From the NCBI GenBank assembly GCA_963838925.1, contig CAWISW010000003.1, positions 352,001-416,000 on the forward strand: a stretch of DNA of 64,000 nt, in the 5' to 3' direction. This stretch comes from an uncultured Nitrososphaerota archaeon. Lineage in GTDB: Archaea > Thermoproteota > Nitrososphaeria > Nitrososphaerales > Gagatemarchaeaceae. Positions 36,190 through 64,000 of this stretch are shown in pieces. Numbering within the stretch: the stretch's first letter is position 1; each line of letters starts with the position of its first letter. Position numbers and translations under genes: made by a program. The notes beneath the pieces were generated by a model that made no database searches, was not told the origin of the DNA, and worked only from the letters and a program-made list of their open reading frames with translations.

Positions 36190-36525
36190 ATGGTCGCAGA
36201 CTCAGGCCTGCCGGCTCCCAAGAAGATGCTAAGGCTCACCGTCATTGTCAAGGCCCGTGACTCCTACCAGGGGAAGCCGGTCGTAGACGTGCTGCTCTCG
36301 CTATACAAGAAGGTCGGCATCTCGGGCGCCACTGTGACTCACGCGGCAAGGGGCTACGGGGTCCGTGGCGTCGCTCGAGCAGACGTCCTGGGCCTCTCGG
36401 TCAACCTTCCCACGATAATCGAGACTGTGGCCGACAATGAGAAGGTCGACAAGGTCCTTCCGGAGATCCACCGGATGGTCGGGAATAACGGTCTGATTAC
36501 GACTTCAGAAGTGAACGTATACTGA
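36190..36525 (+). CDS. DUF190 PII-like protein
   Basis: GISGATV...GYG...LSVNLP; usual crcB partner. Confidence 0.85.
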   Translation: MVADSGLPAPKKMLRLTVIVKARDSYQGKPVVDVLLSLYKKVGISGATVTHAARGYGVRGVARADVLGLSVNLPTIIETVADNEKVDKVLPEIHRMVGNNGLITTSEVNVY

Positions 36526-36643
36526 CTAGGATGAGAAAAGTAGCGAGAGGTTGAACTGAGTCTTCTTGCGCTAGGCCAAACGAAGACTAGACTCTACCCG
36601 TTGGGACAATACTATAAGAAAAGCCGCTTGACTTACCCACTCA

Positions 36644-37252
36644 ATGCAACGAACCAATACTGTCTTGGCAGTCTTCGTAGTATTGGCCATTGCGCTCGCT
36701 TCTCTCTCCGCTCTGGAATACTCGATGCTCGGAACGCAAAAGACCACAACCATGTCAGAGATCGGGACTAGCGTTCTATCTACTACAACCGTTACCTCCA
36801 CAGTTACCACCTTGAGCGAAATCACGGTAACTGCTTCCTCGCTCCCTTACGTGTTGCCTCCGGACGAACATTGTTGCTTTGTGATTCAGACCGCTGACAA
36901 TGTTACTGGAACTACTTTTGCATACACAGAGTTGAACGGATCCATCCCAGCAGCCTCTTACGCCCTCGATAACGTAACCTCGTTCACCCTCGATAACGTG
37001 AGATTCAGCATCGTGGTATCGTTGGTCGGCCAAGCCCAACATGGACTTGGTTGTTACCTATGGCCGCCCACAGAAGCCGGATACGTCCAAGCGACCTTCT
37101 CAGACGGGACCTCTGAGCGACTGAATCCCTGCCTTGTGCTTGGAGCTCCAAGCATGGCGGTCTTGCTGACCAGCCACGTCAATCCTCAGGCAGGATTCCT
37201 CATATCTGGAGCTACGGGCGGCTTCTACTTCCTTGTGAGCACAACTCCATAG
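36644..37252 (+). CDS. Membrane-anchored surface protein
   Basis: TM, Thr-rich linker, module shared with 17395. Confidence 0.75.
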   Translation: MQRTNTVLAVFVVLAIALASLSALEYSMLGTQKTTTMSEIGTSVLSTTTVTSTVTTLSEITVTASSLPYVLPPDEHCCFVIQTADNVTGTTFAYTELNGSIPAASYALDNVTSFTLDNVRFSIVVSLVGQAQHGLGCYLWPPTEAGYVQATFSDGTSERLNPCLVLGAPSMAVLLTSHVNPQAGFLISGATGGFYFLVSTTP

Positions 37253-37317
37253 AGATTCGAACCTACAGAAGACAGGAGTGGAACGGCAAGAGCATACGCT
37301 CATCTTTTGATAATGAA

Positions 37318-37384
37318 TAGCGAGGGGTGGAGTTTCAGAGGGATATCCCTCCTTTGAACTTACGGCCGGATTACTCCGGTCACC
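37318..37384 (-). pseudogene. Isolated tRNA-iMet 3' fragment containing two BHB introns
   Basis: Removing 37360-37380 and 37332-37352 gives GGTGG-TTCAAAT-CCACC-CCTCGCT-A: a perfect T arm plus the same acceptor strand as tRNA-iMet. Confidence 0.85.
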
Positions 37385-37419
37385 CTTGTCGTCTAAATAC
37401 TCCGTAGTCCTATTGAATC

Positions 37420-38109
37420 ATGGAGTTTTCGTCGCTAACTCCTGGCCGGGCGGAGCTCCTTGGAGCCATGACAGGAGACAAGCGAGTTTTCAAACAGACC
37501 CATGGCTACGGTTTCTACAAAGGATACGATTTGTCGAAATATACCCGATACATTACTTCGATTTGTCTTGGAGCCGACAAGGAATGGGGGAAAAGGCTCT
37601 CGGGCATAGCTTTCAAAGAGTTTGGAATTAGAGGATCAATCTACTGGGATCGTGACGAATGGTTCTTGTTCACCAGCTCGGCGAGATTATTCAGAGGTTT
37701 ATCCCCTTACTATTCGCCTGAATGGAATGCTAGGAAATGGAGGGTCAGCCCGGCCATACTGGCGTCTTCGTTGGAGGCGAGATGTCGCTTCGTAAAGGGC
37801 TATTTCGACGCCGACGGCTATCCGTACTTCAATAAATCTAGAAACAAGATTCTGGTGCAGGTCAATTCTGTAAACAACCGGGGACTAATGGATGTGAGAC
37901 AACTTTTGGAAAGCATGGACTTCCATCCCGGACTCTACAAGCGCTACCGAGACAAAGCGGTTTGGGAGGTCACGATTCAAAGAAAGCAAGAAATCGTGCG
38001 GTTTTCCAGGGAAATTGGTTTTAGCATCGCCAGAAAGCAGAAACGCCTATTGCGAATGATAAATCGCAAATGGCCCGGCTTAATAGTGAGTAGCGAGGGA
38101 AGGATTTGA
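37420..38109 (+). CDS. Free-standing two-motif LAGLIDADG endonuclease-like protein
   Basis: AELLGAMTGD and FVKGYFDADG; basic; lower GC; stop lies antisense within the tRNA. Confidence 0.8.
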   Translation: MEFSSLTPGRAELLGAMTGDKRVFKQTHGYGFYKGYDLSKYTRYITSICLGADKEWGKRLSGIAFKEFGIRGSIYWDRDEWFLFTSSARLFRGLSPYYSPEWNARKWRVSPAILASSLEARCRFVKGYFDADGYPYFNKSRNKILVQVNSVNNRGLMDVRQLLESMDFHPGLYKRYRDKAVWEVTIQRKQEIVRFSREIGFSIARKQKRLLRMINRKWPGLIVSSEGRI

Positions 38110-38187
38110 ACCTTCGCTCTGCGGGTTATGAGCCCGCCGGGATAACAACCAACGCCTTTTGGGCGCACCTGGCTTCCCCACCTCGCT
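38091..38187 (-). tRNA. Initiator tRNA-Met(CAT) with a 22-nt D-loop intron (38146-38167)
   Basis: A1-U72, three G-C anticodon-stem pairs, BHB central helix GCCA/TGGT; CCA not encoded. Confidence 0.92.
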
Positions 38188-38293
38188 AAGCTGAAACACC
38201 CGATTTCTGACTCTTATATCCTTCTCGGAGTCTTGAGGTCCTAAGATTCGCGCGATTCTAGGATTGATGGGGCGACCAGAGAACAAGGCGTTT

Positions 38294-38545
38294 CTAGGAA
38301 GTCACGGGAGAAGGCGGAGTGACCTTCTTGGAACCAGGTTCCGAGATTAGTATGAAACCCGCCAAAATCAACGCAAATCCCACATATTCGAAAATGGGAT
38401 TGGAGCTTGTAATGCAATCTCCGGGAGGGGAAGCGCAACCAGTTAGAGGGAAGAATCTGCTCAGAAACAAGAATCCGCCTACCAAGAGGAATATTCCCGT
38501 CGCCAACACGATCCATCCCAAACGGCGGACCTGACTCTTCCTCAT
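38294..38545 (-). CDS. Small 2-TM membrane protein
   Basis: Two TM helices with a Cys pair in the loop. Confidence 0.6.
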   Translation of the reverse strand: MRKSQVRRLGWIVLATGIFLLVGGFLFLSRFFPLTGCASPPGDCITSSNPIFEYVGFALILAGFILISEPGSKKVTPPSPVTS

Positions 38546-38712
38546 GTCTCTAGAATCTTCACCCTCTAAGATAAGCGTGCGCCGAGCCTAAGACGCGGGC
38601 GGCGTCGTCCAGGCATTGACAGGAAGAATGTGACGTGCATCTACGAGAGCCCAACGTATCGCCCGTTTCGTTACGTGTGACTGTAAAGAAATGAGTGTGA
38701 AAAGAGCCTAAA

Positions 38713-39252
38713 CTAACTTCTCTGGAGAACTAGGCTCTCGGCATCCACCCCAACCGCAGCGTCAACGTCTTCCTTGAGCCGCCTGAGCCTTTGCACGTCG
38801 TGCCCCTTCCTGACGAAGCGCTTGACCTCCTCCTCGAAGGGCCTCGCCGTGTCTCCTTCCAGCATCTTGTCGGCGAAGCAGACTATCTTCTCCTCGAGGG
38901 TCCTAGGGACGTATTCCCCCGCGGGGAACTTTAGCGCGACAGCCTCCTCGTGCGAGATCCCCGCGCCGACGTGCCTCTTGACTATCTCCACGACGACACC
39001 GTCCACTCCTTCCTTCTGCAACAGCTCCGCCCCGACGTACCCGTGAGCCACCGTCTGTATCTGTGTCCGCCCGATGTCGTGGAGGAGCGCTCCCGCGACC
39101 GCGGCCTCCTGGTTGACGAGGTTCCCGCGCGACGCAGCCTTCTCGGAGAGCAGCCTCGAGATGGTGGCGCACGCCTGGCAGTGGCTGACGATGCGCTCGT
39201 TGCTCCCATACTTCTTGTGGAGGGCCAAGGCCTGCTGCGCGCTGGGAATCAT
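38713..39252 (-). CDS. HD-domain (HDIG) phosphohydrolase
   Basis: LLHDIGR, HGYVG, RHVGAG, EEKIVCFAD. Confidence 0.88.
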   Translation of the reverse strand: MIPSAQQALALHKKYGSNERIVSHCQACATISRLLSEKAASRGNLVNQEAAVAGALLHDIGRTQIQTVAHGYVGAELLQKEGVDGVVVEIVKRHVGAGISHEEAVALKFPAGEYVPRTLEEKIVCFADKMLEGDTARPFEEEVKRFVRKGHDVQRLRRLKEDVDAAVGVDAESLVLQRS

Positions 39253-62073: not shown

Positions 62074-62101
62074 TTGGTGGGGTCGCCCGGATTTGAACCG
62101 G
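62074..62101 (-). repeat. 28-bp copy of the tRNA-Pro 3' end (att-like)
   Basis: ttggtggggtcgcccggatttgaaccgg identical to 63541-63568. Confidence 0.95.
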
Positions 62102-63541: not shown

Positions 63542-63664
63542 TGGTGGGGTCGCCCGGATTTGAACCGGGGGTCTCAAGCGCCCAAGGCGACTTCTCATGC
63601 TGATTTGAAGCCTAGACCAGACTCGCCCTGCAGCTCTGAAAGCTACAGCCTAGCCGACGACCCC
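63542..63664 (-). tRNA. tRNA-Pro(TGG) with two non-canonical introns (63622-63649, 63589-63604)
   Basis: Acceptor GGGGTCG/CGACCCC-ACCA; anticodon arm CAAGC-CTTGGGC-GCTTG after splicing; BHB helix CTTC/GAAG at 29/30, relaxed BHB at 15/16. Confidence 0.9.
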
Positions 63665-64000
63665 TTGTCCAAGGTTCTATTGCGTCTCATATTATACTCT
63701 ATCTCCGCAAATTTGGTGAAGCTGATGACTTCTCTTTTGACGGCCTTCTTGAAGTCTTGCACTTTGGGCTTGATGCGATCCCAACTTAATTCCGCCGATT
63801 CCAAGACGAGTTTCATCTTCGCAATTTTCTCCGGATGTCTTGATATCGGCAACAGCCTTTCTGCGAGCGTTCTCACTTCACTCCTTCGGCGCACCTCAAG
63901 CCTTGCCTTGGCGTCAACATCGATTCTGGAGTTTCCCTGTGCTCCATAGAGCAAGGGGTGGAAACCATCTCGGCCCAGCGCCGCTGCAGATTCTCTTAGG
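63643..64000 (-). CDS. 3' part of a hypothetical gene entering from the window edge
   Basis: Frame is open to the edge, but its stop overlaps the tRNA 5' end. Confidence 0.35.
   Translation of the reverse strand, partial: LRESAAALGRDGFHPLLYGAQGNSRIDVDAKARLEVRRRSEVRTLAERLLPISRHPEKIAKMKLVLESAELSWDRIKPKVQDFKKAVKREVISFTKFAEIEYNMRRNRTLDKGSSARL

Follow-up and report, generated by a model that had tools for sequence, protein, structure and literature searches.

Why should a complete initiator tRNA gene be followed by a second copy of its own 3' end, and which of the two ends is the original one? This question was raised by a locus in a 64,000-nt stretch of DNA, here called the window (positions 352,001 to 416,000 of contig CAWISW010000003.1, assembly GCA_963838925.1), from an uncultured Nitrososphaerota archaeon of the family Gagatemarchaeaceae, in which a LAGLIDADG homing endonuclease gene lies between an initiator methionine tRNA gene (tRNA-iMet) and a displaced tRNA-iMet 3' end. 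The answer that we favour, and consider probable, is that the tRNA-iMet gene was invaded by a homing-endonuclease cassette that brought a replacement gene end with it. A sequence-only reading of the window had already proposed that a free-standing endonuclease was inserted together with a replacement 3' end, and this much agrees with the native distal arm and the foreign-looking proximal arm described below; its further proposal of a single event and a simple loss of introns goes too far. In window coordinates, with related genomes (G) and loci (L) given by our handles, the features of the locus are:

38211..38221, minus strand: TATA box of the tRNA gene (GGATATAAGAG), in the native upstream flank and conserved in G020, G014, G022, G017, G008, G018 and L030
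38091..38187, minus strand: complete tRNA-iMet(CAT) gene, read from the sequence; Rfam tRNA match of 31.5 bits on 38091-38156
38146..38167, minus strand: D-loop bulge-helix-bulge (BHB) intron of 22 nt; central helix GCCA/TGGT with four of four pairs and inner helix of 5 bp, checked by script
38091..38115, minus strand: replacement T arm, acceptor 3' strand and discriminator (GAAGG TTCAAAT CCTTC), intron-less, which we read as cassette-borne
37420-38109, plus strand, antisense to the tRNA: free-standing two-motif LAGLIDADG gene of 229 residues, from its Pfam LAGLIDADG_3 match, motifs and structural model
37391..37400, plus strand: TATA-like box (GTCTAAATAC), 20-29 nt ahead of the endonuclease ATG
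37318..37384, minus strand: displaced native T arm and acceptor 3' strand (tRNA positions 49-73) with two BHB introns, from the sequence and its match to relatives
37360..37380, minus strand: 52/53 BHB intron; inner helix of 5 bp, central helix with three of four pairs (AGGG/CCGT)
37332..37352, minus strand: 59/60 BHB intron; central helix TTCA/TGAA with four of four pairs, 3-nt bulges AAG and ACT, inner helix of 5 bp

To decide which arm is native we searched 41 related genomes, including the window's own, at the DNA level and then read the loci. In four genomes of the same genus in which no endonuclease was found (G012, G022, G017 and G008) the contiguous tRNA-iMet gene ends in the window's stranded arm and keeps both introns, just as had been predicted for endonuclease-less relatives (a GGTGG stem with introns at 52/53 and 59/60), and the same stem and intron pair occur in the contiguous gene of metagenome locus L030. 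The displaced arm was 98.5% identical to that of G012 (68 columns, one indel), 95% to G022, 94% to G017 and 96% to L030; the alignment to G006 ran ~40 nt beyond the tRNA end into the trailer, and the gene that follows the tRNA in G012 and G022 is the convergent small gene found at window 36190-36525. Because the stranded arm matches the working arms of relatives and keeps its native downstream context, we take it to be the original end in its original place. The GAAGG stem of the proximal arm, by comparison, was seen in the window only (1 of 53 tRNA-iMet alleles parsed for stem and intron content), and it is one compensated pair away from GGAGG, a stem that related cassettes carry and that is characteristic of a different genus within the family. 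From these letters the proximal arm looks imported, being rare and nearest to the cassette-borne GGAGG. Between the displaced arm and the convergent gene, the window holds ~760 extra bp relative to G012 and G022 (36526-37317); this stretch includes a 202-residue open reading frame (ORF; 36644-37252) with no Pfam match, and its first 40 nt are common to G006.

We also compared the contigs of four DNA runs (X1-X4) with the locus, a comparison that shows presence and variants only. An artefact of assembly, joining two strain variants, could be suspected in a metagenome-type assembly of three contigs that is 87% complete, and runs X1 and X4 do also contain endonuclease-less alleles with the same arm (loose ends at 37384). 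However, an independent 1556-nt contig of run X3 spans 37318-38234, that is fragment, endonuclease gene and tRNA, at ~96% identity, and genomes and metagenome contigs that were assembled separately (L022, L029, L032, L033 and L034) show this layout too, so that an artefact is hardly credible. In run X1 a 448-nt contig passes from 37831 straight back to 37316 (a step back of 516, with a 31-nt side), which suggests a differently arranged relative of the locus.

The displaced arm is 67 nt long and reads GGTG, 21 nt, GTTCAAA, 21 nt and TCCACCCCTCGCTA; this pattern occurs once in the window, even with two mismatches allowed, and in none of 100 shuffles. Removal of both inserts leaves GGTGG TTCAAAT CCACC followed by CCTCGCT and A, and when this spliced arm was joined by coordinates to the neighbouring tRNA body ARAGORN called a 75-nt tRNA-Met(CAT) with seven of seven acceptor pairs and five of five T-stem pairs. 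As judged from the letters, the inserts have the 4-bp central helix, the two 3-nt bulges and the restored canonical tRNA expected of BHB introns, with all four central pairs at 52/53 seen only in the intact G012 allele (GCGG/CCGT, one G-U); the pair that is missing from the window's fragment is accounted for by the junction, since it is present in intact G012. As a separate observation, the 21-nt intron at 59/60 is letter-identical in the window's fragment, G012, G018, G022, G017, L030 and the G020 fragment, with one change in G006, and the intergenic flanks of these loci are only 70-82% identical.

Archaeal initiator tRNAs are marked by a CAU anticodon, an A1:U72 end and three consecutive G:C pairs closing the anticodon stem, and the gene at 38187..38091 has all of these when read directly from the sequence (CAT, A1:U72 and GGG/CCC). 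Removal of the D-loop intron leaves the D loop as AGCCAGGTTA, the same as in G012, and with this intron taken out by coordinates ARAGORN called a 75-nt tRNA-Met(CAT); the presence of the intron explains why the unprocessed gene was called tRNA-Pro by ARAGORN and was aligned by Rfam only in part (38156..38091, 31.5 bits). The assembled genome has a single iMet body and two splicing-endonuclease subunit genes. The sequence-only reading had described most of this correctly, namely a stranded piece with two hairpin inserts (a perfect helix at 59/60, three of four pairs at 52/53) whose splicing restores a perfect T arm and acceptor strand, an intact tRNA with a different T stem (GAAGG/CCTTC) and no introns in its T arm, and a lone two-motif LAGLIDADG gene between the two; what it missed was the D-loop intron of the intact gene (38167..38146) and the antisense position of the endonuclease gene, the last 19 nt of which overlap the tRNA 3' end. 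In its default mode ARAGORN found no tRNA-iMet in L022, L002, L005 and L004, although multi-intron genes are present there, and with long introns allowed it strings unrelated halves together. Since standard finders miss or miscall such multi-intron tRNA genes, loci of this kind are easily overlooked.

The endonuclease ORF is the only sizeable one between tRNA-iMet and the displaced arm. Its product matched Pfam LAGLIDADG_3 (PF14528) with an E-value of 6.9e-11 (42.7 bits against a cut-off of 22.5) and has the motifs GAMTGD20K and GYFDAD132GY; among 25 homologues D132 was invariant and D20 was present in at least 90%, while both were invariant in a smaller comparison of three sequences, and by analogy we take these two aspartates to be the catalytic acidic residues. 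An AlphaFold2 model (predicted local distance difference test, pLDDT, 90.1; predicted template-modelling score, pTM, 0.87) has two tandem alpha-beta-beta-alpha-beta-beta-alpha domains and is, as a prediction, I-DmoI-like, with Foldseek matches to the TliVMA intein endonuclease (E-value 2.2e-10), I-DmoI (template-modelling score 0.74-0.77, target-normalised), PI-PfuI and I-Tsp061I. With its Pfam match, conserved aspartates and I-DmoI-like model the gene looks intact. A counterpart of its TATA-like box stands ahead of the homologues in L029 and L030 (GCCTAAATAG), and the box is a putative promoter of a leaderless endonuclease mRNA. A sequence search of PDB with the endonuclease gave weak intein matches only (E-value 2e-3), and a search for the Rfam group I intron family Intron_gpI at E ≤10 in 36500-39000 gave no match, which is no proof against a group I intron.

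The family to which the endonuclease belongs is small (29 clusters at E ≤1e-10 among 5.8 billion proteins; lengths 128-259 residues), its closest members being P0002 at 88% and P0003 at 82%. Its distribution is patchy: the endonuclease was present in 4 of 97 genomes of the family and 1 of 23 of the genus, and in none of 400 other genomes of a class-wide sample. A search at the level of the order found matches in 8 of 201 genomes, six of the matches lying in open frames of 1107-2166 residues that are intein-like. The endonuclease profile had no match in viral contigs, and a viral origin was rejected on this ground.

Taken from 38115 down to 37385, the cassette would measure ~730 bp and comprise a new T arm with acceptor 3' strand, a short spacer and the antisense LAGLIDADG gene with its putative promoter; it is positioned at the boundary between variable loop and T stem (48/49). 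Integrative elements commonly rebuild the tRNA end that they interrupt and leave a displaced fragment, and one might therefore suppose that an integrase- or recombinase-type element left an att-like duplication here, with the endonuclease as its cargo. A precedent is Caldiarchaeum subterraneum tRNA-Thr(GGU), where a displaced 5' fragment and, 1.8 kb away, a copy that has one intron more are reported to flank a recombinase-encoding element (PMC3293823). The two cases have in common a mobile element at an archaeal tRNA gene, a displaced fragment and a working copy with a different number of introns; they differ in that the fragment in that account is a 5' piece, whereas the cargo in the window is a homing endonuclease. 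The 730-bp insert has no recombinase, the LAGLIDADG gene being its only sizeable ORF, and the two repeats differ in stem and introns and so are not identical att cores. For these two reasons, to which the lack of a match of the endonuclease profile in viral contigs may be added, we consider an element of this type very unlikely.

Homologous endonucleases, 45-56% identical, share this layout at four other loci. At all homologue-bearing loci the upstream genes, for an HD-domain protein and a TFE-like protein, are syntenic, and the endonuclease lies antisense behind tRNA-iMet. The arms and endonucleases of these loci are:

L022 (=G194, another genus): proximal arm with the 52/53 intron only; distal arm GGAGG with the 59/60 intron only; endonuclease intact
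L034: proximal arm with the 52/53 intron only; distal arm GGAGG with the 59/60 intron only; endonuclease frameshifted into three ORFs
L029 (=G227, third genus; metagenome-assembled genome of a Thaumarchaeota archaeon): proximal arm GGAGG with the 52/53 intron; distal arm GGTGG with the 59/60 intron, after a scrambled anticodon arm; endonuclease intact
L032 and L033: proximal arm with both introns; distal arm eroded; endonuclease intact in L032
L030 (closest fetched homologue): proximal arm the native two-intron arm; distal arm at most an 11-nt remnant; endonuclease intact
G250: proximal arm with the 52/53 intron; endonuclease a C-terminal remnant only

A full second arm is present in each of L022, L029 and L034, and in every two-arm locus of the endonuclease family a difference between the arms, either in stem letters or in the 52/53 intron, comes no more than 5 nt 3' of position 48. 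The endonuclease genes form a decay series, from intact in the window, L022, L029, L030 and L032 through frameshifted in L034 to the remnant in G250. Every proximal arm was intact. Of the distal arms, those of L032/L033 were eroded, that of L030 had all but vanished, and 15 nt were left in G018. The cassette is a recurrent, old element and not a single recent accident.

Cargo unrelated to this endonuclease was also found at tRNA-iMet, in G018, G020 and G239, each time with a displaced arm. In G018 an antisense ORF with a single LAGLIDADG_1 motif (1.9e-7) lies between tRNA-iMet and the 15-nt remnant of T stem and acceptor, and in G239 a 135-residue ORF with no Pfam family, and with unnamed clusters as its only Atlas matches, lies between tRNA-iMet and a full second arm that begins in the anticodon loop. 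The insert of G020 is ~1.3 kb long, and its cargo (L002 200-1437, minus strand) is a broken protein of ~420 residues, its two ORFs of 142 and 276 residues jointly matching a family of ~410-430-residue proteins (31 clusters). Searches of this cargo found no Pfam family, no Atlas match and no Foldseek match at E ≤1e-3; in its AlphaFold2 model (pLDDT 89.8) the C-terminal domain (~270-397) resembles PD-(D/E)XK nucleases with VIA-align Z scores of 7.3-5.2 and has conserved E, D and Q-x-R residues. These scores are middling, so we treat the likeness in the model as a lead only, by which the cargo may be a putative, undescribed family of homing nucleases.

A mirror-image layout exists at tRNA-Pro(TGG) of the window's own genome (C3:416485..415542, minus strand; window 63542-64000, running past the window end). 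Here the order is native promoter with an intron-less 5' fragment, a 259-residue LAGLIDADG-like ORF on the tRNA strand (Pfam LAGLIDADG_3 at an E-value of only 0.023) and the complete gene. The 5' fragment reaches ~position 42 and has a mutated anticodon loop, the duplicated 5' part of the complete gene has a D-loop intron and a 29/30 intron, and there is a TATA-like box inside the end of the ORF. Contiguous tRNA-Pro alleles were intron-less in G006 and had two introns in G020, G008 and G022; at the same locus G002 has a homologous ORF and G018 another LAGLIDADG cassette. Separately, the last 27 nt of tRNA-Pro (T arm, acceptor strand and CCA) recur without a change at window 62075-62101 (C3:414075-414101, minus strand), 1.47 kb downstream of the tRNA-Pro gene, and the sequence preceding this second copy was called by no tRNA finder; the copy may belong to another multi-intron tRNA-Pro isoacceptor or be a further displaced end.

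How such a locus could arise can be laid out as a series of steps. The endonuclease would cut endonuclease-less iMet alleles in or near the region of anticodon stem, variable loop and T stem, and the break would be repaired by copying the cassette-bearing allele, beginning in the highly conserved tRNA body; the far side may be closed on the displaced arm as a homology arm, or by illegitimate joining. After this the resident 5' two-thirds of the gene would run on into the imported arm to form a complete tRNA for which a single BHB splice suffices, and the native two-intron arm would be left stranded downstream, out of use. The cassette-bearing allele would itself escape cutting by an altered site (the GAAGG stem here, the 52/53 intron in related cassettes), and each invasion would swap both the intron complement and the stem sequence of the tRNA end.

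Several observations weigh against this scheme. The 5' limit of the displaced piece varies (~49 in the window, 47 in G020, 44-49 in L022/L034, ~27-41 in L029, and ~66 or none in L030), so a single precise homing junction is not seen, and either the junctions were independent or the piece erodes. In L030, whose endonuclease is 59% (tblastn) or 59.9% (local alignment) identical to that of the window, the tRNA ahead of the endonuclease gene still has its native two-intron arm, and there is no clear second arm; an endonuclease can therefore sit beside the gene without replacing the gene end. Endonuclease identity mostly tracks the identity of host proteins, and homing is not easily told apart from a long vertical inheritance accompanied by losses. 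There is some incongruence, in that the endonuclease of L030 is closer to that of L029 (66.5%) than to that of the window (59.9%) and the HD protein shows the reverse (57.1% vs 75.6%); we take this only as a hint of transfer. The differences between arms within 5 nt after position 48 would fit a target that spans the boundary of variable loop and T stem and is disrupted in the carrier. The displaced arm of the window itself has the 52/53 intron, however, and any target beyond position 52 would thus be interrupted in the invaded allele, which sits against a target reaching far into the T arm.

Some of the same observations would suit a local tandem duplication or illegitimate recombination unrelated to the endonuclease, in which the LAGLIDADG gene merely came to lie between the copies and decay of the downstream copy set in at its 5' side: the varying limits, the reach of the L029 piece, the furthest of all, back into a scrambled anticodon arm, which is what one would expect of a full copy in decay, and the L030 endonuclease that adjoins an unaltered native arm. 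A fresh copy would start out identical, however, and the arms differ in stem and introns at every locus, by four compensated changes and two introns in the window and by GGAGG with the 52/53 intron against GGTGG with the 59/60 intron in L029. It would also be unlikely for a mere passenger that at least four unrelated cargos, three of them nuclease-like, occur in the same layout at tRNA-iMet, and another at tRNA-Pro. On balance we regard such a duplication as unlikely, and invasion by a cassette with a replacement end as the better account.

Might the distal piece still be in use, either as an alternative 3' exon reached through a long intron or as a trans-spliced piece of a split tRNA? The piece is nearly unchanged (one indel relative to G012), each of the three changes in the G020 copy still leaves a G-U pair in the RNA, and split and permuted archaeal tRNAs are known, including an iMet permuted at 59/60 according to the excerpted text of PMC3218864. 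Yet we found no BHB between body and piece: in the one register that would yield the mature sequence none of the four central pairs forms, and inner and outer helices are lacking as well. A long cis-spliced intron to the distal arm was rejected on this ground. The central helix of the 52/53 intron is weakened by the junction (three of four pairs), the 87%-complete genome has one iMet body only, with a complete contiguous gene upstream of the piece, and in L032/L033, L030 and G018 it is the distal piece that has eroded, the proximal arm being intact. The split-tRNA alternative that the sequence-only reading had kept alive thus finds no support in the contiguous gene, the single body and the missing BHB, and continued use of the piece seems to us highly improbable.

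If the locus was built by cassette invasion, what does the replacement do to the introns? On GGTGG and GGAGG stems alike, the 53 parsed alleles include each of the four possible combinations of the 52/53 and 59/60 introns; D-loop introns, of which there are at least two kinds, and 37/38 introns are present in some alleles and absent from others. The D-loop intron of the window is absent from the ~96%-identical cassette-bearing contig of run X3 and letter-identical in G020, the upstream flank of which is only 82% identical. The replacement ends have no intron (window), the 52/53 intron (L022, L029, L034 and L042), both introns (L030 and L032) or two added introns (tRNA-Pro). Of the 7 proximal arms linked to an endonuclease, 6 have the 52/53 intron, as do 24 of the 46 others; we leave these as plain counts since the loci are related, and they too sit against a target reaching far into the T arm. 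Six intron-less GGTGG alleles were parsed, five of them in genomes with no insertion detected at the gene and the sixth being the replacement arm of G020. To describe the locus as a route for intron loss, with both introns removed in one event, therefore overreaches: related cassettes carry one or both introns in the replacement arm, replacement ends keep or add introns, and five intron-less GGTGG alleles come without a detected insertion. Because related replacement ends carry introns and the tRNA-Pro end has two more than the displaced one, the cassette exchanges intron complements in both directions, and the event is best described as an allele-end replacement that reshuffles introns, the loss of two introns in the window being one outcome. 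A side observation concerns G189 (L056) and G194 (L022), whose tRNA-iMet genes are 99% identical over 134 nt, three introns included, and whose flanks gave no alignment in 400 nt upstream or 1.5 kb downstream; this points to exchange of whole tRNA alleles or to an unusual constraint on intron sequence.

Is there a known system of this kind? The closest parallel comes from fungal mitochondria, in which mobile endonuclease ORFs (mORFs) with a replacement gene end occur in atp6 of Allomyces macrogynus and in atp6, atp9, cox2 and nad3 of a Glomus species (PMC3630166). There, as in the window, the host gene harbours an endonuclease ORF (LAGLIDADG or GIY-YIG in the fungi), its resident upstream part runs on into a terminal part brought in from elsewhere, and the native terminal part lies farther downstream and is closer to the genes of relatives than is the inserted part (PMC3630166). 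The window has both marks, its displaced arm being 94-98.5% identical to working arms of relatives and its inserted GAAGG occurring in 1 of 53 alleles. The differences are that the host here is an archaeal chromosomal tRNA gene and not a mitochondrial protein gene, that the ORF is antisense and unfused to the host, that the exchanged part has or lacks BHB introns, so that intron content changes, and that a mirror-image version with a replaced 5' end and its own promoter exists at tRNA-Pro. In the literature searched, which did not cover most subscription journals, we found no prior account of a homing endonuclease replacing the end of an archaeal tRNA gene; the principle is known from fungal mitochondria, and the present case extends it to archaeal chromosomal RNA genes.

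With I-DmoI, I-Tsp061I and the LAGLIDADG enzymes of archaeal inteins the window's endonuclease shares a predicted monomeric two-domain fold (Foldseek E-values of 2e-10 to 3e-7), at 10-22% sequence identity to the solved enzymes. The genes of those enzymes reside in rRNA BHB introns or inteins, elements that do not remain in the host product, whereas the window's endonuclease is free-standing and would spare its host gene by replacing the gene end. Free-standing endonucleases of T4-like phages spread with flanking DNA by break repair ("intronless homing"), and in "collaborative homing" a free-standing endonuclease is paired with an intron that interrupts its target, the donor being protected by sequence differences or by the intron. 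The free-standing gene, spread by break repair and protection of the donor are the points of likeness to what we propose; unlike the locus studied here, the phage systems belong to bacterial phages with group I introns and involve no displaced gene end.

Other tRNA genes of the genome have similar neighbours. A small free-standing LAGLIDADG_3 ORF is found at a distance of 133 nt from tRNA-Cys, tRNA-Asp and tRNA-Gln each have one upstream (at 154 nt and ~100 nt, respectively), and further ones lie on both sides of a tRNA-like call at C3:45632-45726; these small LAGLIDADG_3 ORFs near tRNAs are at:

C1:284831-285100
C2:55584-55775
C2:217968-218249
C3:45283-45516
C3:45999-46151

In this genome tRNA genes look like a habitual neighbourhood of small LAGLIDADG_3 genes. 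No duplicated pieces were found by blastn-short beside the LAGLIDADG ORFs at tRNA-Cys, Asp and Gln, a null result that says little, since this low-sensitivity method also misses the iMet case.

It is a long-standing idea, cited in the excerpted text of PMC3218864, that introns and split genes shield tRNA genes from mobile elements. A broader and decidedly tentative extension of our reading, which we think possible though doubtful, is that tRNA genes are habitual targets of free-standing homing endonucleases spreading as replacement-end cassettes, which as DNA would move BHB introns and compensated stem variants between tRNA alleles, that introns and stems serve as immunity against the endonucleases, and that an arms race of this kind explains the mosaic of D-loop, 37/38, 52/53 and 59/60 introns at tRNA-iMet in the family. 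For the question of how archaeal tRNA introns are gained, lost and moved, the locus and its relatives, in which tRNA ends with different introns are exchanged in physical linkage with a nuclease gene, offer a concrete case that can be put to the test, with native and imported ends side by side and natural alleles of every intron combination to serve as substrates. The layout suggests one way in which tRNA introns get swapped between alleles.

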